A program made the position numbers and the translations under genes. A stretch of 64,000 nt of DNA, from positions 1,696,001-1,760,000 of the forward strand of contig CAXXFF010000002.1 of assembly GCA_963676835.2 (NCBI GenBank). The letters run 5' to 3'. Positions 10,092 through 18,566 of the stretch are shown piece by piece (position 1 is the first letter of the stretch; the number at the start of each line of letters is the position of its first letter). Origin of the DNA: Marispirochaeta sp. (GTDB taxonomy: Bacteria > Spirochaetota > Spirochaetia > JC444 > Marispirochaetaceae). The notes below the pieces were generated by a model. It saw nothing but the letters and a program-made list of their open reading frames with translations. It made no database searches and was not told the origin of the DNA.

Positions 10092-10432
10092 GCAGCAGTA
10101 AAACCCCGGGAGATACACAGAAGTTTATTAAGGCGGTTGCAGACCATAAAGGCTGGATACTGAACCGTGACAGTGAGTATATCGAGTTTCTTGTTAACGG
10201 ACTGACGGTTAATCATGAACGTTACGGGTTTTACCAGTGTCCCTGCCGTGATTCCTACGGGGATAAGGTAAAGGATAAGGATATCCATTGTCCCTGTGAG
10301 TATGCCGCTGCGGATATACAGGAGTACGGCCAGTGTTTCTGCGGTCTTTTTCTTGATGCGGATTATTACTCAAGCCATGAGGATGTGGACGGAATCCCTG
10401 AGCGCCGTCCGGATGAGCTCTTTCCGGACTAA
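10088..10432 (+). CDS. Ferredoxin:thioredoxin/disulfide reductase catalytic subunit
   Basis: CPCR, CPC, CFCGLF motifs, C-terminal IPERRP; ATGA coupling to the Grx gene. Confidence 0.88.
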   Translation: MSSSKTPGDTQKFIKAVADHKGWILNRDSEYIEFLVNGLTVNHERYGFYQCPCRDSYGDKVKDKDIHCPCEYAAADIQEYGQCFCGLFLDADYYSSHEDVDGIPERRPDELFPD

Positions 10433-11100
10433 CCGTTTTCGTTGATCAGTTCTATGGTTCCCCGGGAAAGGTTCTTGCGCAGGATTCCTTCATAGAAAAG
10501 ATATCTGCCGTCTCCTGAGCGGAGGAGGTAGAGCCCCTTCCAGAACTTGGCAAGCCAGTTGTTTATGCTTATTTCAACTTCCACGGCTTTTTCCCGTATT
10601 CCGTGAACTGTTATTGTTTTCTCTTCTTTACGAACCGCCCGTAAGGAGCTGAGTTTAAGATTCTGGGGCTGGATGAACCAGAAGGAGCGTTCTGTCTCTT
10701 CCCGGGTAACAAACTCTTCCATACCGAAAGGAAAAATCTGGTGCCAGGGCGAATCATCCTTTATCTGATACTCTTCTGTTTTTGTCCGGCGGCCCTTTTC
10801 CTGTATAAGACTAATCCTGTTTCCGTCTCTTGAGGCTTCTATGTAGAGGTCTTCAGCGTAATTCTGAAAGTACCAGCTTTGAGTATCACCTTCTGCATCC
10901 ACCACAATATGTTCCACACTCAGTACTGTTTCATCCAGGGTCTTTGTGAGGGTGTACTCCTTACGGCCATTGGCTTCGTTAATGGAAAGGGTTAGATCCG
11001 TGCAGTCTCCGTCAAGATTCTCATGGTAGAGAAGGTTGTCCCCGTATAGCAGCGTTCCAAGTGATATAAAAATGAGCAGGATTAAGGAAATCTTAGGCAT
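10429..11100 (-). CDS. Exported hypothetical protein; true start probably ATG at 11100
   Basis: MPKISLILLIFISLG signal peptide; TTGACA-N17-TACTAT-N6-ATG directly upstream. Confidence 0.7.
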   Translation of the reverse strand: MPKISLILLIFISLGTLLYGDNLLYHENLDGDCTDLTLSINEANGRKEYTLTKTLDETVLSVEHIVVDAEGDTQSWYFQNYAEDLYIEASRDGNRISLIQEKGRRTKTEEYQIKDDSPWHQIFPFGMEEFVTREETERSFWFIQPQNLKLSSLRAVRKEEKTITVHGIREKAVEVEISINNWLAKFWKGLYLLRSGDGRYLFYEGILRKNLSRGTIELINENG

Positions 11101-11194
11101 AGGCGTATAGTAAAAGAGGTCCATATAAGTGTCAATTGCAGTCAGCAGGCAGATCTATCTATATGAGTTACGAGGGAGTGAATTAACAGAAAAC

Positions 11195-11890
11195 TCATCG
11201 TTCAAGCTTGAAGGTAAAGTCCTTGATGATTTTTATCGCTTTACCGGGAGGCTCGAAGCTCCAGGATGAGATTACCGTGTCGATAACCGTGCGGTCCAGG
11301 ATGGGATATCCGGAAGAGCGCTGAACCTCCACTGCGGTAATGGACCCGTCTTCCGCAATGGAGATAAGGGCCCGGACGGTGCCTTCGTAGCCGAAGCGCC
11401 TGGCAGCATCCGGATATTGGGGTACATCAAGCACCCGGCCCCGGGTAAGGCCCTGCCACGTGATTGGTGCTGCTGCGGGTGACGCTTCGGATGTGCTGTT
11501 GTTCCCTGCGGATGCCTGCATTGTATCTGTTGATTCTGCTGCCGGAGCTTCTGCTGCAACTTTATTCTGTAGAGAAGCATTTTCCGTCAGAGACTGCTGT
11601 TCTGGTTCCGGGTTCTCGGGTTGTGCTGTCTCTGCCGGGGGAGGCTCCGATACAGGCCTTTTTTCTCTCATCGGCTGCTCCGCCTGTTTCGGAACTGCAG
11701 GTGCAGATACCTCCGGCGGCAGTACTCTGAGTTTTATTTCAGGGAACCGTGGTACTTCTATGGCGTTCTGAGGTGACTGCAGCTGTACCAGGATATAAAG
11801 AGTGATGCCTGCTCCATGGAGGAGCAGGGAGAGCGTCCATGCGGTAAGCGAGGTTCTATTCGACAACAAGGTACGGAGTTTGTGGACCAT
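11195..11890 (-). CDS. tonB: Energy transducer TonB
   Basis: N-terminal TM with SLLLHG, Pro/Ala/Glu-rich linker, YP..ARR.G.EGTV....I..DG.I..V.V..SSG..ILD...W.F.P. Confidence 0.92.
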   Translation of the reverse strand: MVHKLRTLLSNRTSLTAWTLSLLLHGAGITLYILVQLQSPQNAIEVPRFPEIKLRVLPPEVSAPAVPKQAEQPMREKRPVSEPPPAETAQPENPEPEQQSLTENASLQNKVAAEAPAAESTDTMQASAGNNSTSEASPAAAPITWQGLTRGRVLDVPQYPDAARRFGYEGTVRALISIAEDGSITAVEVQRSSGYPILDRTVIDTVISSWSFEPPGKAIKIIKDFTFKLER

Positions 11891-12953
11891 CTGATGCGGA
11901 TAAGTCTACCTGACTGTAGCTGTTTTGTGTATCCAGGAGCATTATGGAATCGCCGCCGAAGTTGGCTACCACTAAAAGCCCTGTACTACTGTCATAAACT
12001 GCACCGGCATAAAGGTCCGTCTGGGGGTTCGAGAGAGATTTCAGATGATGGTCTGCAGGCAGGGACGGTGTTGCCGCATCGTAATAGTCCAGGCCGTAGG
12101 TTCCGGTAAGGTAGACAAAGCCTGTGTCAGAGTTATATGCGCCGGTGTTGTATGCAGGTGAACCGCCCACTGCAAGTCTTGTAATTTCGGATATGGAAGC
12201 CGGAGAAGCCGGAGTGGAAATATCCAGAACCAGGATTTCACCATCATCATCGGACTGGCCGCCGCTGAGATAAACATGCAGCTCGTCCGCAGAAGGGAAT
12301 CCCAGGCATGTCTGGGGGTTGCTTCCTGTACCGGTAGCGTAGGAACCAATATAGCTGTAGGGGGAGACTGCGCTGAAAACGGAAACTGACCCATCGCCGA
12401 TGGTACTGCCGGTATTCGCGCTATTACAGATATAGAGATAATCGCCGACTACGGTTCCGTCCTGGGGCCGGTTAAGACTGAAGGCATCATCCTTGAGTGT
12501 CGCAGTAAGCTCCAGGGTTGCGAGGTTTATAACGGAAATTGAATTGTCCACATAGTTCGGCACAAATGCGGTTGTCGGTTCTGATGCGGAACCGGTAATA
12601 ATGGAGTAGGGGTTTTTCCCTGCACCCAAGTAAATGTTATCGGTGTTTTCAAAGGTTGATTCATTAACAACCTGTATAGTGTTGTCTGTGCTGCAGACAA
12701 TAAAGAGCTGGTCGTTGTAGAACAGCATATCATTGGGAACTGCCCCGGTAAGGAAGACGTTGTTGTAAAGGGTTTGTGTATCCGGATGCAGTACTGAGAC
12801 TGTTTCCGCCAGATTGTTGAGAATAAATATTTCGCGGGATTTATCTTCAAAGCTTCTGCTTCCGTATTCAGTCTCGGGGGTGCAGCTTTGAATAAGCGGA
12901 AAGATGATCAGTAGAAGAAGGCTGAGAACAATAAAAGGATTCTTAAAACGCAT
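11856..12953 (-). CDS. YncE-like beta-propeller lipoprotein, BtuG-like
   Basis: Lipobox LIQSC; repeated blades (NTIQVV, NSISVIN, G.VPNDM, GKNP, GSNPQ, GGSP); coupled to the TBDT gene. Confidence 0.72.
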   Translation of the reverse strand: MRFKNPFIVLSLLLLIIFPLIQSCTPETEYGSRSFEDKSREIFILNNLAETVSVLHPDTQTLYNNVFLTGAVPNDMLFYNDQLFIVCSTDNTIQVVNESTFENTDNIYLGAGKNPYSIITGSASEPTTAFVPNYVDNSISVINLATLELTATLKDDAFSLNRPQDGTVVGDYLYICNSANTGSTIGDGSVSVFSAVSPYSYIGSYATGTGSNPQTCLGFPSADELHVYLSGGQSDDDGEILVLDISTPASPASISEITRLAVGGSPAYNTGAYNSDTGFVYLTGTYGLDYYDAATPSLPADHHLKSLSNPQTDLYAGAVYDSSTGLLVVANFGGDSIMLLDTQNSYSQVDLSASDGPQTPYLVVE

Positions 12954-15057
12954 AACGGAGCTCCATGCTGAGTTCTATTCCGGGAACCGGATACTCCCGT
13001 ATATCCACATAGGCGATATTGAAGAGGTTTGTGCCGCTTAACACGAAATCGAGGTTGTCCCTAACCGCAATTGTTGCCGAGGCATCGGTAATAAAACAGG
13101 GATCGTACCATTTGGTGTTGGCAGCGGTTATGTAGCGGAGGCCTATGTAGCGGCCTTCCAGCCGCAGGGAATGCCCTTTCGTTGTTGTCAGGGTTGCGGT
13201 TGAGTTGGCTGTCCATACCGGTTTTCGGGGGATTATCTTGCCGTAGGTGGCGGTGCCTTCGGTACGGTCTTCTGCGTGGAGCCAGGTGCCGTTGGCGGTG
13301 AGTTCAAGGTAGGAATCAATCGCGGGCAGATCCAAAAGGCTGCGTACTTCGGACTCTATGCCCCAGAAGCGGCTGCTGCCGATATTGATGGGCCGCCATT
13401 TGCCGTTGGGGCCGGGGTTCCACTGAATAAGGTTGGTAACTTGACGGTAAAACCCGGCGGCTTCGATCTTTAAAAAAGGCAGGGGCTGCATCAGCACGCC
13501 GCCGTCTGCATACCAGGACTCTTCCGGTTTCAGATCGGGATTGCCCGTGGCAAAGGAGGTGGATGGCCAGAAGAGGTCGTCGAAGGAGGGGGCACGGTAG
13601 GCGGTTCCTCCGCTTGCTTTCAGGGTATATTTCTCGTCCCTGTCCAGAGGGGACAGGATTCCCATTTTCCAGGTTGCCTGAGTCCCTGAGGAGGATTCTG
13701 CTGTTGTATAGCCGTCGATAGCCCAGCTGTCGACTCTGACTGCGGGAAAGAGGGCCAGCCTGCACACATCTGAATCTGCAAAAGGAAAGAACCGCAGCTC
13801 TCCCCGGCTGAAGCCTGCGTTACGGATCCGGGTAACGCCGGAGTCGGAGAACTCGCTGCCCCCGGTATCGGTAAAGGAGGTGGAGTCCAGGGTATCCAGG
13901 CGAAAGCTGTATCCGCTTAAAAGGGATGCGGCCCAGCGTGTAAAGGAGAACTGCTGTTCGTAGCGGCTTTCTCCTTCAAAGGCCAGGTTCTCGTGCCGGT
14001 CGTCTATGGGGCCGAGATAAAAGTCCGGGTCTTCGTATTCCCGCACCTGCCGGGTAAAGCTGAGAGTCCCGGTGATATCTCCCCAGCTGTTGAGCCAGCT
14101 TGTTTCCACTGATCCGGTTTCCCGTTCGTCCGCCATGCGGGCGGTAACCGAGGGAAACTCCACGGTGCCGGGAACGCCTTTGTCGTCGAAATAGACGGAG
14201 GAATCAACTGCGATGTTCAGGTTCTCCAGAGGGGAAACATGCATAGAGGCTGCTGCACCGCCCTGGAGGACATCGGCGTTCTCTCGTTCCAGGGTGCCGA
14301 AGTTCTCATCCTCAAAGCTGTAGTTGCCGTCACTGGTTAAGCCGTGGATGGATAGGCTGCCTCCGAGGGTTTCATCCTGGTTACTGCTGGAAAGAGAAAC
14401 GGACCCGAAAGCGGTGTTCTGGGATGCGTAACCTCCGCGGGCACTGCCGGAGAAAATATCCGGTTCCGGGGATTTTGTTATCACGTTGATAACGCCCCCC
14501 ACGGCATTTTCGCCGTAAACAGCAGAATCCCCGCCGCGGTAGATTTCGATGCGTTCGATGATATCGGGATTGATGGTGGAGAGGTCCGCGCCGCCTCCCT
14601 GGGCGGTGTTGATGCGTTTGCCGTTAAGGAGAACCAGTACCTGTTCCGCTGAAGATCCACGAATAGAGACTAATGCGGATGAACCGGTGCCGCCGTAGCG
14701 GGTAAGGGATACGCCCAGTGCCGGTTCCAGTACCTCCGTCAGGGTCTTCGGGGCTGAGGCTGCAATTTCCTCTGCGGTTATTACCGTCATCTGCCCGGGC
14801 AGGGAACGGGGATCGGGAGCGTCGATGCGGGCTTTGATGATTATTTCCTGGGGCTGTGACGAATCTTCTTCTTCATCGTTTGCTGAAGGGCTCGTCTCAA
14901 GTGTTTCCGTATCGTCAATGATTATAAAGGCTTCTTCCCCGTCGTCGACGATAATGGTTTCCTGGGCGTAGACGGTGCCGGGGACTATAAAAATAGAGAG
15001 AGTAAGAAGTGTAGAAAAAGCCCGGCAGAATAATGTCATTCTTAAATTAATTTCCAA
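12943..15057 (-). CDS. btuB: TonB-dependent outer membrane transporter, BtuB-like cobalamin receptor
   Basis: Plug motifs SIRG..AEQVLVLLNG and IERIEIYRG..SAVYG..AVGGVINVITK; YRAPSF.DL, GNPDLKPE; terminal Phe; under a B12 riboswitch. Confidence 0.85.
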   Translation of the reverse strand: MEINLRMTLFCRAFSTLLTLSIFIVPGTVYAQETIIVDDGEEAFIIIDDTETLETSPSANDEEEDSSQPQEIIIKARIDAPDPRSLPGQMTVITAEEIAASAPKTLTEVLEPALGVSLTRYGGTGSSALVSIRGSSAEQVLVLLNGKRINTAQGGGADLSTINPDIIERIEIYRGGDSAVYGENAVGGVINVITKSPEPDIFSGSARGGYASQNTAFGSVSLSSSNQDETLGGSLSIHGLTSDGNYSFEDENFGTLERENADVLQGGAAASMHVSPLENLNIAVDSSVYFDDKGVPGTVEFPSVTARMADERETGSVETSWLNSWGDITGTLSFTRQVREYEDPDFYLGPIDDRHENLAFEGESRYEQQFSFTRWAASLLSGYSFRLDTLDSTSFTDTGGSEFSDSGVTRIRNAGFSRGELRFFPFADSDVCRLALFPAVRVDSWAIDGYTTAESSSGTQATWKMGILSPLDRDEKYTLKASGGTAYRAPSFDDLFWPSTSFATGNPDLKPEESWYADGGVLMQPLPFLKIEAAGFYRQVTNLIQWNPGPNGKWRPINIGSSRFWGIESEVRSLLDLPAIDSYLELTANGTWLHAEDRTEGTATYGKIIPRKPVWTANSTATLTTTKGHSLRLEGRYIGLRYITAANTKWYDPCFITDASATIAVRDNLDFVLSGTNLFNIAYVDIREYPVPGIELSMELRYAF

Positions 15058-15961
15058 TCATGCTGAGATCAACAGCACCGCTGATTTCAGGAGATACTTC
15101 GTTGAGCATTCCTGCAATGAGGAATATTCCGCTCTGGATTTTAATAAAACGGATAGAATCAAGGACTACCGGATTCCCTGAGGAATCAACTGCATCATCA
15201 ATATCAAAACGGTTTGCGCTCCGGTAGGAGGATCCGAAGGGGAGTGCGGCATCCAGATCGGTTCCGCTGTAATTCTCTGCATAGCCTTCGGTAAACAGGC
15301 TGTCATAGTCTACCCAGATGTCATCAGCGTTAAGATACTTGCTGTCCGGCAGTTTTACACCGTTAAGGGTTATTTCGGTGGCACTGCCGTAGCCGTCCCA
15401 CCACCATCCGGCGGATACACTGCTTTCGGGGTATCCGGGGACAAGCTCCACTCCTGTATTGCCCTGGTTGTCTGTCCAGGTGATGTTGGAACTGTCATAG
15501 GCGGGTTGTGAATAGGTAACCTGGTAATCCTGTATGTAGCCTGTTTGGCCGGTTTCGCTGCCCGCAAGTTCGTACCACGGTTCTTCCGGGTCGGGATATC
15601 CGTTGCTGTTGGTATCCTGTTTTACGAAGACAGCAGCCGGTTCATTTCCGGTTCCTGGTTGTGTATAGACAGCAAAATCATACCCAGTGACATTGCTTAT
15701 ATCGTGATCGAAGCCGGCTTCTATAAAACCACCCCAACCGCCGAGCATTACATAGGACGAAGATGTGCCGATGAACTTTGCCATCTGTTCTTCTTTTGTT
15801 CCTATTGTTGAAGCATGCTGTCCTGGACCGTAAGTGTAGTCGTAGACGGTGCTTATGTAGGGAGAATCACCAGAGCTGGAAGAGCTTGCATTTTCGCAGG
15901 AACTTATAACGAGGGGGACGAGAAGAAATAACAGCGGGATGGAAAATGTAAATCTTCGCAT
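15047..15961 (-). CDS. Surface lipoprotein, BtuH-like (Bacteroides B12-locus cell surface protein domain)
   Basis: Lipobox ISSC; Y..GPGQH, LGGWGGFI..GFDH.I.N..GYDF.V, EP..V.V.QD.N.NG.PD...WYEL.GSE, FDI..AVD..G..V.L..I.FIK; start re-called at MRRFTF. Confidence 0.68.
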   Translation of the reverse strand: MRRFTFSIPLLFLLVPLVISSCENASSSSSGDSPYISTVYDYTYGPGQHASTIGTKEEQMAKFIGTSSSYVMLGGWGGFIEAGFDHDISNVTGYDFAVYTQPGTGNEPAAVFVKQDTNSNGYPDPEEPWYELAGSETGQTGYIQDYQVTYSQPAYDSSNITWTDNQGNTGVELVPGYPESSVSAGWWWDGYGSATEITLNGVKLPDSKYLNADDIWVDYDSLFTEGYAENYSGTDLDAALPFGSSYRSANRFDIDDAVDSSGNPVVLDSIRFIKIQSGIFLIAGMLNEVSPEISGAVDLSMIGN

Positions 15962-16029
15962 AAAAATACCTTTTAAAGCAGATATCCCGACCACCTGCCA
16001 CGGGTACGGGATACCATACTTTTGGAGAG

Positions 16030-17076
16030 TTATTGCCGTTCCGCTCCGTTGGAGCTGTAATCGAAGTAACCGTCTGCATAGGTTACGCTGCTTTCTGCCT
16101 CAGATGCTGTATCAAAAACAGTATTAGGCCAGGTCCCTGCATCAGCCGGGGTTGCATCTTTATATCCCTGGGTAAAATCCATGGTTAGACTGTCGGTTGC
16201 ATTCTGTACCCAGCGAAAAACCTGGTATTTACCTACTTCTCCTGTACCAGTACTATCGACTTCGGTGAACTGGATTACCGCATATCCGGGATCATTGGTG
16301 GAAGATGACTGTCCTGAAAAAGTTGTTTCTGATGCATTGAGTCCGCTATTGGAATAGCTGACAATATCAGCTTTGAAGACTGTTGCGGCACCTGAACCGT
16401 AGTCTGTGGAGTATTCAATTGTGGAATCGGTAATAACCCAGTACTCAGTGCCGTAAGTTCCTGCCAGTTCCCAGGATCCTTCTGCCCGGATAATTTCTTC
16501 AGCACCTTCAGAAGCTGCCCCGAAAAAGCCGTTGGTGTTTGTTACGTTCTGTATAGCTTCTGCAGCTGTGTCATACACTGTGTTTGGCCAGGTCCCCGCA
16601 TCATCCGGGGTGGCATCTTTGTAGCCCTGGGTGAAGTCCTTGTCGGCTGAATCAGACTGGTTCTCCGCCCAGCGAAAAATTTGGTATTTACCTACTTCCC
16701 CGTCTCCTGTCGTAGCAACTTCAGTAAACTGAATTACTGCATAGCCCAGTCCAGTTGTTGAAGAGCTAACAGACGATGTAATTGATGTATCGCCGGCGTT
16801 AAGCCCGGTGTTTGAAAAACTAATAATGTCTGCTTTGTAATTAGTGCTGAACCCTGATCCCCAATCGGATAGATACTCGATGGTGGATTCGGTTATTACC
16901 CATTTCTCAGTTCCATATGCCCCTGTTAATTCCCATATACCTTCGGCTGCTATGGTTGCTGTTGTTCCGCCACCGCTTCCGGCTCCGGTATCCTGACATC
17001 CGCTCAAGAGCGAGACAAAGGCCACCATGGCCACTAACACTGAGATTTTTAAAAACTTTCCTGTAAGGTTTTTCAT
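16030..17076 (-). CDS. Lipoprotein with two tandem ~155-aa beta-rich domains; first gene of the B12-riboswitch operon
   Basis: Lipobox LLSGC; internal repeat AEG.WEL.G.YGTE.WVIT.STIEY...GYAVIQFTEV...GEVGKYQ.FRW...DFTQGYKDATP.DAGTWPNTV.DTA.EA. Confidence 0.85.
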   Translation of the reverse strand: MKNLTGKFLKISVLVAMVAFVSLLSGCQDTGAGSGGGTTATIAAEGIWELTGAYGTEKWVITESTIEYLSDWGSGFSTNYKADIISFSNTGLNAGDTSITSSVSSSTTGLGYAVIQFTEVATTGDGEVGKYQIFRWAENQSDSADKDFTQGYKDATPDDAGTWPNTVYDTAAEAIQNVTNTNGFFGAASEGAEEIIRAEGSWELAGTYGTEYWVITDSTIEYSTDYGSGAATVFKADIVSYSNSGLNASETTFSGQSSSTNDPGYAVIQFTEVDSTGTGEVGKYQVFRWVQNATDSLTMDFTQGYKDATPADAGTWPNTVFDTASEAESSVTYADGYFDYSSNGAERQ

Positions 17077-17079
17077 GTT

Positions 17080-17104
17080 TCTTCCCCTTGGGGCAGAAGA
17101 AGCG
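17080..17104 (-). promoter_or_regulatory. RBS-sequestering hairpin (riboswitch expression platform)
   Basis: Minus strand TTCTTC-TG-CCCC-AA-GGGG-AAGAA-AC-ATG pairs over the SD. Confidence 0.6.
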
Positions 17105-17199
17105 GGGCTGCGGCGAGCTTGAATTTAACGGCAGGCTGTTCTATTCAGAAGGCATCGCCCATTCCGACTTTTTCCGCGAAGTCTAAAAATGGTTTTGTT

Positions 17200-17336
17200 T
17201 CCGTATCAACGTCTCCTGGCTGACGGATATCATCCGCCGCGCCTTCCCGGGGGTACCCAGTGGCATATGCGGCGGCTTTTCCGATCACAGTGACGGGATC
17301 GCGAAGGATTTGCACCTTCTTCCGTTAAATACAGTA
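17200..17336 (-). promoter_or_regulatory. Cobalamin riboswitch
   Basis: Minus strand AACGGAA-GAAGGTGCAAATCCTTC-GCGATCCCGTCACTGTGA...GCCACTGGG...GGGAAGGC...AGCCAGGAGAC (B12 box); upstream of a TBDT operon. Confidence 0.93.
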
Positions 17337-17489: not shown

Positions 17490-18566
17490 TCAGTTCCAAC
17501 TGGGATAGGGGTGGAATGCTTCCCTCAGGAGTGACCCAGAACTGAATGCTGTATGATCGATAGGGCGTTCGACTGTTCCTGTTTCCGGAACATGTTCGCT
17601 CCAGGAGGAGATATCCTGGTCGAAGGCCTCTGTGCCGTAGAACATCCAGCTCATATCTGTAGCACTGTCGGGGCTCCAACCGCCGATATCCTGACTGAAC
17701 TGTTCATTCTGAAAAAACATCTGTTCAAAATCCTCAACCTTAGAAACATCCCAGCTGCCGATATCATGATCGAAGAGGGTATCAGAGAACATGCAGCGCA
17801 TGGTGGTAACTGCCCCGGTTTTCCAGTTGGAGAGATCCTGATCAAAGGCTGATGCCCCGGCAAACATGGCTTCCATGGAGGTTACCTTCTGTACATCCCA
17901 TGCTGAGATATCTCCATTAAAGGTTGATGCTCCGTAGAACATGAAGTACATGTTTTCCACATTACCTACATTCCAGGTTGAGAGATTCTGGTTGAACCCG
18001 CTTACCCCGTCAAACATGAAACCCATGGTGGTGACATTGCTGACGTCCCAGCCGGATATGTCCTGATTGAAGCTGGTATTGCCGACGCAGAGCTGATGCA
18101 TGTTCGTTATTTCCGAGGTGTCCACCCGGGTGACGTCTTCGTCGTTGTTGATCATGGCTTTCAGCTGGTCGAAGTTGACGGTCATTTTCACAACAACGGT
18201 GTAGTCTGAAGTGTCACCGCTTTCAGCGGTGACGGTGTAGATAACATCCCCGGAGAAATTGTTTTCGGTGATGCCGGATTCCTGGGGTGTGAGGCCTACG
18301 GCTGCGCTTTCTCCTGCCAGAGTGAAGGATGCAATAAGGGCTGTATAGTCTGTGCCGTAGGGAACTCTGAGCAGGATGGTTTCGTCGGTGATTGTTCCAA
18401 TTACATCGCCAGACAGTTCCGATGGGTTGTCGGCAGCGGTAAAAGTGAAGGCTGTTATTGCGGATGAGCTTGATGGACCGGGAGTCGCTCCGGTACCTGC
18501 CTCCTCGCAGCTGGTCACCAGCAATAGTGTTGCTAAAACTGATAGTAGAGATATGATTTTTTTCAT
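17490..18566 (-). CDS. BspA/DUF285 repeat surface lipoprotein with N-terminal Ig-like domain
   Basis: Lipobox VTSC; ITAFTF...I...VPYGTD..L...F...NFS..V.YTVTAE.G....YTV; ~25-aa repeats FNQDIS.WDVSNVT.M..MF. Confidence 0.9.
   Translation of the reverse strand: MKKIISLLSVLATLLLVTSCEEAGTGATPGPSSSSAITAFTFTAADNPSELSGDVIGTITDETILLRVPYGTDYTALIASFTLAGESAAVGLTPQESGITENNFSGDVIYTVTAESGDTSDYTVVVKMTVNFDQLKAMINNDEDVTRVDTSEITNMHQLCVGNTSFNQDISGWDVSNVTTMGFMFDGVSGFNQNLSTWNVGNVENMYFMFYGASTFNGDISAWDVQKVTSMEAMFAGASAFDQDLSNWKTGAVTTMRCMFSDTLFDHDIGSWDVSKVEDFEQMFFQNEQFSQDIGGWSPDSATDMSWMFYGTEAFDQDISSWSEHVPETGTVERPIDHTAFSSGSLLREAFHPYPSWN

Follow-up and report, generated by a model that had tools for sequence, protein, structure and literature searches.

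An unnamed spirochaete lipoprotein domain family with a predicted lipocalin-like barrel is tied to vitamin B12 uptake

The window, i.e., the whole stretch of 64,000 nucleotides that was analysed, contains an open reading frame at positions 17076-16030 of the minus strand, which encodes a lipoprotein of 348 amino acids. As the earlier note on this DNA had described, the protein starts with a lipoprotein signal peptide (aa 1-26; 16999..17076, minus strand) that ends in LLSG, followed by Cys27, which is predicted from the motif to be lipidated, and a tether of 14 Gly, Ser and Thr residues (Cys27 and tether, 16954..16998, minus strand). The cysteine column is almost invariant across the spirochaete domain family described below. 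The public protein record for this gene (16030-17028) has 332 amino acids, and its start would fall within the signal peptide; the start of the 348-aa form gives a basic N-region and has a purine-rich stretch just 5' of it.

The tether is followed by two copies of one domain. Copy 1 comprises aa 42-195 (16492..16953, minus strand; GxW motif G46/W48). Copy 2 comprises aa 196-348 and, in the coordinates 16030..16491 (minus strand), also the stop codon (GxW motif G200/W202; coding part without stop codon 16491-16033). With 154 and 153 amino acids, respectively, the copies had the length of about 155 residues that had been claimed from the letters alone, and all four near-identical blocks quoted at that time were found in both of them. 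The alignment revealed 101 identical residues at 151 aligned positions (67%; BLOSUM62 score 530) and, on the DNA level, 296 identical bases at 419 aligned positions. Between the copies pN was 0.235, and pS was saturated (0.83), indicating that the duplication is old and that change at the protein level has been constrained. The mature chain contains 46 Asp and Glu residues versus 12 Lys and Arg residues (pI 4.05), 41 of its 322 residues are aromatic, and His is absent. The description as an acidic protein rich in aromatic residues was, therefore, correct.

A cobalamin riboswitch aptamer is located upstream of the gene (17211..17323, minus strand; RF00174 model positions 47-167, 80.2 bits at a cut-off of 31.5, E 3.9e-18), and 134 bases lie between the aptamer end and the start codon. 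The aptamer shares the strand of the gene, which is, thus, the first to follow the switch, as had been assumed before. The 4.4-Mb genome has only two RF00174 matches, and the second precedes the gene for a BtuF-type binding protein (PF01497). The second gene of the operon (15047..15961, minus strand; likely start ATG 15961, the longest ORF begins at 15994) encodes a lipoprotein homologous to BtuH (7BIZ, E 7.4e-30); 7BIZ is the structure of BtuH2 with cyanocobalamin, according to PMC13616437. Next, a TonB-dependent receptor with plug and barrel domains is encoded (12943..15057, minus strand). Its best NCBIfam model was TIGR01779 (164.5 bits, far below the model cut-off of 599.7), and the receptor is likely BtuB, with a B12 role deduced from the riboswitch. 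It is followed by the gene for a beta-propeller-like lipoprotein (11856..12953, minus strand; YNCE E 1.7e-4, below cut-off; TIGR03866 E 5.6e-9), which found no match at E 0.01 in a PDB sequence search and which, by its position, appears to be BtuG-like, and by the gene for TonB (11195..11890, minus strand; TonB_C E 2.5e-16). A scan for promoters and terminators did not yield more signals than were present in shuffled sequences, and the leader between aptamer and start codon did not fold better than shuffles (z -0.16).

A lipoprotein with DUF285/PARCEL repeats is encoded immediately ahead of the riboswitch (17490-18566, minus strand). On the DNA level it gave no more than weak matches at other places of one relative's genome (G004), and the slot in the other relatives contained no match; it may have arrived together with the B12 module. 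After tonB follows the gene for a 231-aa protein without a family match (10429-11124, minus strand). Its assignment to the B12 module was set aside, because it is present with 57-83% identity in all five same-genus genomes, whose module differs. In these five genomes (G002-G006, loci L109-L113) the slot that corresponds to window positions 11195-17323 is occupied by a simpler set on the opposite strand, i.e., riboswitch, btuB and tonB. The btuB of this slot is distant (24-36% identity in blastp segments), and neither a copy of the domain nor a BtuH match was found in the slot of any of the five. The presence of a different B12 set in the same slot indicates that the importer module was exchanged in one lineage or the other. 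The host genome, which is 97% complete, encodes seven B12-binding domains over the cut-off, whereas cobS was not found and no match to cobQ was over the cut-off. The host, therefore, likely depends on imported complete cobamides, and the results for cobS and cobQ make cobinamide salvage doubtful.

The window protein matched no Pfam family at E 0.1 and had no credible NCBIfam or PDB sequence match, and the same was true for the family profiles and for family members. Weak PDB sequence hits to CEACAM1 (E 0.2) and to an esterase (E 0.04) were taken as chance. When 50 domain-only members were compared with Pfam and NCBIfam, only scattered matches were observed (best E 0.003, at most three members per family), and none of the 50 matched DUF4465, the family of BtuJ. 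The protein and two profiles yielded nothing at E 10 against 7BIZ and 8BLW; in the positive control, the neighbouring BtuH homologue found these structures at 7.4e-30 and 2.5e-26, respectively. The BtuF domain Peripla_BP_2 (PF01497) gave no match in the window protein. BtuG and BtuK are seven-bladed propellers of about 350 residues, in contrast to the repeat unit of 153 amino acids with eight strands and one helix. The earlier note was right to call the protein unrecognised and unlike BtuG, BtuH or BtuF, as it belongs to no Pfam or NCBIfam family and is unrelated in sequence to the solved proteins of these three types. By sequence or predicted architecture, the spirochaete family lies outside of BtuJ, BtuH, BtuG/BtuK and BtuF.

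The first homologue search revealed 18 proteins, of which most were lipoproteins with a single domain (about 190-230 aa), a profile search revealed 110 representatives (50% clustering), and the iterated family set comprises 233 domains in 224 proteins, most of which have about 160-200 aa in full. The iterated profile takes in the signal peptide, and a few weak rows of this set, e.g., the second copy of P0125, may be false. ESM Atlas matches were all below 0.9 and served as leads only. In the sources the members are named 'hypothetical', 'uncharacterized', 'Lipoprotein' and, once, 'Lipocalin-like domain-containing protein'. The organisms named include Spirochaeta, Treponema and Brachyspira, and many members are from genomes titled as free-living Spirochaetaceae. 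A scan of 185,579 species genomes with motifs of the close clade gave 16 matches, all 16 titled as spirochaetes; the wide profile was run within Spirochaetota. Full-text literature searches listed no description of the domain family, for which an entry in a riboswitch regulon table is possible, and the terms 'spirochet', 'spirochaet' and 'lipocalin' have no occurrence in the accessible part of PMC8941943.

AlphaFold2 models were generated for copy 2 (17 alignment rows) and for a distant compact member (41 rows). Both had a pLDDT of 89 and the same order of elements, namely seven strands, a helix between strands G and H, and the eighth strand. The domain is predicted to be an eight-stranded antiparallel up-down barrel of the lipocalin/calycin type, and for copy 1 the barrel is assigned by homology to copy 2. 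The earlier suspicion of a lipocalin-like barrel with GxW near each repeat start agrees with this predicted fold, and in the copy 2 model strand A begins with GxW. Of the 233 domains, 173 have GxW and 211 its tryptophan; GxW of SCR1 on strand A is defined as a calycin or outlier lipocalin feature in PMC5040251. A second such feature is a basic residue on strand H that packs on the SCR1 tryptophan (SCR3). R347 is a candidate for it in copy 2, but copy 1 has Glu in this column, which contains K or R in 103 of 219 filled rows at a poor alignment end.

With Foldseek, as had been suggested, neither model found a match at E 0.001, but another structure comparison had Tp0751 (5JK2) as top match for both, i.e., for copy 2 (Z 9.5, rmsd 2.8, 98 aligned residues) and for the distant member (Z 9.6, rmsd 4.0, 103 aligned residues). 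The second match was the Bacteroides lipocalin 4GZV (Z 8.3 and 8.1). Models without a clear match typically reach Z 7-8 with this tool, and, because 9.5-9.6 is only a little higher, the calycin-like barrel is sound, whereas a kinship to Tp0751 in particular, with an identity of 8-9%, is not established. The BtuJ, BtuH and BtuG chains were absent among the best 50 structural matches listed, an absence that excludes nothing. The spirochaete domain, as modelled, shares the compact eight-stranded barrel with Tp0751 (pallilysin), 4GZV and the calycin superfamily, and Tp0751 is also a spirochaete lipoprotein with GxW on strand A. The domain differs from Tp0751 by its conserved helix-bearing G-H insert and its tie to cobalamin switches, and the ligands given for Tp0751 in the accessible parts of PMC7521688 and PMC5040251 are heme and host proteins, not B12. 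The predicted fold is not among the Btu binders in what was available of PMC12751083, PMC13616437 and PMC8941943.

Glycines and aromatic residues predominate in the conserved columns (W202, G264, Y284, W289, A327, T332, F338). Across the whole family only a small number of positions do not vary, and several of these probably have a structural role. Two conserved elements are the loop G-K-[YFW] between strands E and F and the helix-bearing insert G[YF]...T...A...T...GYF between strands G and H. Loops 1, 3, 5 and 7 form the open end of lipocalins (PMC5040251), and both elements would be located at this end, provided that strand A has the lipocalin direction, from closed to open end.

Enrichment at riboswitch and btuB loci had been proposed as a check, and the genomic context was analyzed in several scans. 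In close relatives a cobalamin riboswitch was found just upstream on the same strand in 14 of 14 loci in one scan and in six of seven in a second scan, and the only miss had just 217 bases ahead of the ORF. Some of these loci recur in the class scan, and the sets are not independent. The class scan matched 61 of 401 genomes and, after two self rows had been dropped, gave 66 rows, i.e., 54 full-domain matches (reaching at least model position 140) and 12 N-terminal matches. The 54 full-domain places are in 53 genomes. RF00174 was found within 1 kb upstream on the same strand in 47 of them (44 over the cut-off), a TonB receptor within 5 kb downstream in 43, and at least one of the two nearby in 53. 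In contrast, none of the 12 matches to the signal peptide alone had a riboswitch or receptor, and a rough chance level is 3 in 10,000 per gene. Among the seven places without RF00174, two have AdoCbl or AdoCbl-II switches over the cut-offs (G129, G312), two have cobalamin switch matches just below the cut-off (G235, G257), and in one (G318) a weak match is located two genes upstream, with a receptor on the downstream side. In the remaining two, the gene is located 74 bases from the contig end (G278), or it is a second copy upstream of a switch, with none found for itself (G077).

The phylum scan with a domain-only profile matched 56 of 401 genomes. Eleven rows (self and genomes already counted) were removed, which left 63 places in 46 further genomes. 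An RF00174 match was present within 1 kb in 39 places, only 13 of them over the cut-off, as weak matches up to E 0.05, mostly in a low-GC genus, were counted. A receptor plug was encoded downstream in 51 places, and a riboswitch match or a plug was found in 58. At least one copy was beside a riboswitch match or a TonB receptor in 45 of the 46 genomes; in the one exception (G389), blastp revealed a BtuB-like gene as the next gene downstream, and an AdoCbl-II match below the cut-off is located one gene upstream. Several large families gave no match in the genomes searched (e.g., f68, 0/80, and f26, 0/11). No test statistic is given, because the counted genomes are kin and cannot be treated as independent trials. 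The refuting outcome named in the earlier note, i.e., homologues that are not associated with B12 loci, was not obtained. The domain defines a genuine lipoprotein family without a name, which extends across the phylum and is linked to B12 uptake.

The window protein fits the class of the Btu accessory lipoproteins in that it is a lipoprotein encoded in a cobalamin-riboswitch btuB operon. The best functional analogy are BtuJ1 and BtuJ2 of Bacteroides thetaiotaomicron (DUF4465, IPR027828), which are also small lipoproteins of riboswitch-controlled btuB operons, and for BtuJ1 a role as an abundant B12 reservoir on the surface is described in bioRxiv 10.1101/2025.07.01.662609 and PMC12751083. BtuJ, which is from another phylum, is a jelly-roll with a tyrosine halo, whereas the spirochaete domain is modelled as an up-down barrel. 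BtuH (BT1956, 7BIZ) and BtuG/BtuK follow the same operon logic, and a BtuH homologue is the direct neighbour in the window. The spirochaete family likely works like BtuJ or BtuH, and we consider it somewhat probable that the protein is a surface lipoprotein that captures cobamides and feeds BtuB. The linkage to riboswitch and receptor, a fusion to BtuH, Ig-like stalks and loci with btuB only all suggest a captor, as do the seven B12-binding domains of a host in which cobS and cobQ were not found. Ten proteins of Bacteroides btu operons bound B12, and BtuL and BtuK2 did not, according to PMC12751083. The predominance of binders, together with heme binding by Tp0751 (a tetrapyrrole, Kd 11.7 uM, with ligand binding predicted at the barrel rim; PMC7521688), provides a prior for cobamide binding. 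The counterweights are that a shared fold shows no function and the structural match is moderate, that BtuL and BtuK2 are non-binding in spite of their location in btu operons, that the location of Tp0751 is disputed, that btuB can do without the domain gene (see below), and that the family has few invariant positions and was counted in genomes that are kin.

The locus architectures bear on the question of whether the protein itself binds. A BtuH-like gene was detected with an iterated profile in 32 of 61 loci, two of which duplicate another locus, and the typical order was that of the window, i.e., riboswitch, domain, btuH, btuB, propeller, tonB. In 25 loci the domain accompanies btuB and no BtuH or BtuG-like gene was found, and the remaining four are short or have no receptor in view. 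In the btuB-only loci the domain gene is often not more than 200 bases from btuB. This is the place of a lid gene, and it would also suit a dedicated B12-uptake accessory that is itself non-binding, i.e., a lid, a scaffold, an assembly partner of BtuB (or BtuH), or a BtuL-like vesicle-release factor. BtuL and BtuK2 are precedents for non-binding lipoproteins of btu operons (PMC12751083), and Tp0751 has no inner pocket according to PMC5040251. We regard such an accessory role as unlikely, since in G602 and G656 the gene follows an AdoCbl-type match and no receptor is encoded in its vicinity, the domain operons of G059, G083 and G149 have their btuB elsewhere, and doubled domains, stalks of Ig-like domains and arrays with as many as four paralogues are easier to reconcile with a captor than with a fixed one-to-one lid. 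A complex prediction for BtuB and the single-domain member of a btuB-only locus (L101; paired 41-row alignments) gave 0.00, 0.66 and 0.16 in three runs; the median of 0.16 is below the mark of 0.32, the controls were not folded, and the result was counted neither for nor against binding. Riboswitch-btuB loci without the domain, i.e., those of the five same-genus genomes and three other checked loci, show that the domain gene is dispensable for btuB.

A BtuF-type gene was present in all four btuB-only loci that were checked, showing that the domain protein does not replace BtuF, and a FecCD permease was present in all three of those checked. A cobamide binder that faces the periplasm, and which hands B12 from BtuB to BtuF or buffers it, would agree with the periplasmic location of many spirochaete lipoproteins and bacterial lipocalins, and the window sequence has no direct sign of surface sorting. 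Tp0751 was argued to be periplasmic in PMC7521688 and to be on the surface in PMC5040251. The presence of BtuF-type proteins in the same operons and, in the window genome, behind the second riboswitch makes this alternative distinctly unlikely, as do the N-terminal Ig-like domains (Big_2, PKD or cadherin-like) in 12 of 16 longer members tested. They match those of the surface proteins BtuH2 and BtuK; PKD domains of the surface binders BtuH2 and BtuK1 are described in PMC13616437. PKD or Ig-like stalks are, thus, common to BtuH/BtuK and the spirochaete family, and in one member (P0034) the domain is fused to a BtuH domain.

The tandem form, which the earlier note had placed at the centre, turned out to be an exception. 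Only nine of the 224 proteins have two copies and most members are single-domain; the family stood, but the duplication was rejected as its defining trait, also because it had several origins. In addition to a FastTree for the wider set, a careful tree was calculated for 38 rows, i.e., 16 tandem domains and the two nearest single-copy neighbours of each, with P0125 left out. The copies of P0004, P0064 and P0104 were starred sisters within each protein in different parts of the tree, the window copies paired with the matching copies of P0003 (100/99), and a single clade of the tandem domains was rejected (p-AU 1.7e-114, model without mixture). The separate sister pairs and the rejection of one clade show that domain doubling happened several times. 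The new part is the domain family, not the duplication.

The proposed surface captor could act as follows. Upon B12 scarcity the switch would be on, and the protein would be exported and lipid-anchored. The two-barrel lipoprotein on the cell surface would bind cobamides and pass them to the neighbouring BtuH homologue and to the likely BtuB importer. A barrel of this compactness probably has no room for B12 in its interior, and we propose that the cobamide is held at the open rim, where the G-K-[YFW] loop (E-F) and the G-H insert would lie in a barrel that is oriented like other lipocalins. By analogy to the descriptions of BtuH and BtuJ, the contacts would be aromatic stacking and hydrogen bonds without cobalt ligation, as no His or Met is conserved. 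A second copy would add a second site, assuming one site per copy, or extra reach; other members might gain reach via Ig-like stalks and copy number via gene arrays.

A small barrel would also suit a smaller ligand than an intact cobamide, e.g., a lower-ligand base, cobalt or another tetrapyrrole; a B12-carrying protein that is stripped by BtuB is a further candidate. Tp0751, the nearest structure, binds heme and host proteins (PMC7521688, PMC5040251), and the paralogue arrays of gut-dwelling members are highly diverged. This reading is nevertheless quite improbable. A free base would be of little use to a host in which no cobS was found, His is missing in the window protein and does not form a conserved column in the 233 domains, and many members are in genomes titled as free-living Spirochaetaceae.

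The capture hypothesis can be extended to the phylum. In the Brachyspira-named genus one to four paralogues per locus are located ahead of the usually single receptor of the genome, and several of them have their own sub-cut-off riboswitch match. A tentative proposal, about which doubt outweighs confidence, is that a lipocalin-fold B12 binder is the core phylum-wide partner of spirochaete BtuB and that, in lineages that include Treponema and Brachyspira, this binder captures cobamides with neither BtuG nor BtuH. Avidity, reach and perhaps lower-ligand selectivity would be tuned by the repeated doubling of the domain, by Ig-like stalks and by arrays of paralogues, several of which have their own riboswitch-like element. 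In Bacteroidota the capture of B12 with the help of lipoproteins has been elucidated and involves propeller, jelly-roll and BtuH folds; if the domain binds cobamides, the lipocalin barrel would be a further fold for this task. Spirochaetes, from free-living Spirochaetaceae to gut Treponema and Brachyspira, would then have their own capture protein, more than 100 clusters of 'hypothetical' lipoproteins would obtain a function, and the compact spirochaete lipocalins of the Tp0751 type a ligand class. The window protein offers a direct comparison of one versus two sites.

Several further observations were made at these loci. BtuH-like lipoproteins occur widely among spirochaetes and have diverged strongly, and they are encoded nearly always right after the domain gene (in the 32 loci mentioned above; examples are 15047-15961 of the window and L003, L004, L007, L012, L069, L070, L085, L086 and L105). 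In one operon subgroup (L006, L009, L014, L015) an extra unannotated gene of about 255-310 aa is located between btuH and btuB. The low-GC genus has another lipoprotein family without a name (about 180-195 aa, motif RYRLIII...WYGGG...WVKY), whose genes are interspersed with those of the domain family in the arrays that precede the receptor (L089:7318-7875, L090:8504-9046, L095:4907-5464, L098:3969-4553, L099:5344-6450 and neighbours). It did not match the domain, three members tested had no Pfam family, and it is a candidate for another B12-uptake lipoprotein. Intergenic regions of L089, L090, L091 and L094 contain short AT-rich elements that resemble cobalamin riboswitches (23-33 bits, below the Rfam cut-offs) and are possibly a diverged subtype. 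In G312 (L119) an apparent member precedes a second TonB receptor, but it was not accepted, because most of its score was contributed by the signal peptide and the domain-only profile gave 5 bits. This region (L119, L120; G312:C78) encodes exbB-exbD-tonB, two Ser/Thr-rich lipoproteins and a TonB receptor, which are not members of the domain family, and the upstream stretch that was searched contained no riboswitch match. Lastly, divergent cobalamin riboswitches are located back-to-back at G289:C6:90203-90611 and G228:C1:92633-93110, and one of them leads a family gene.
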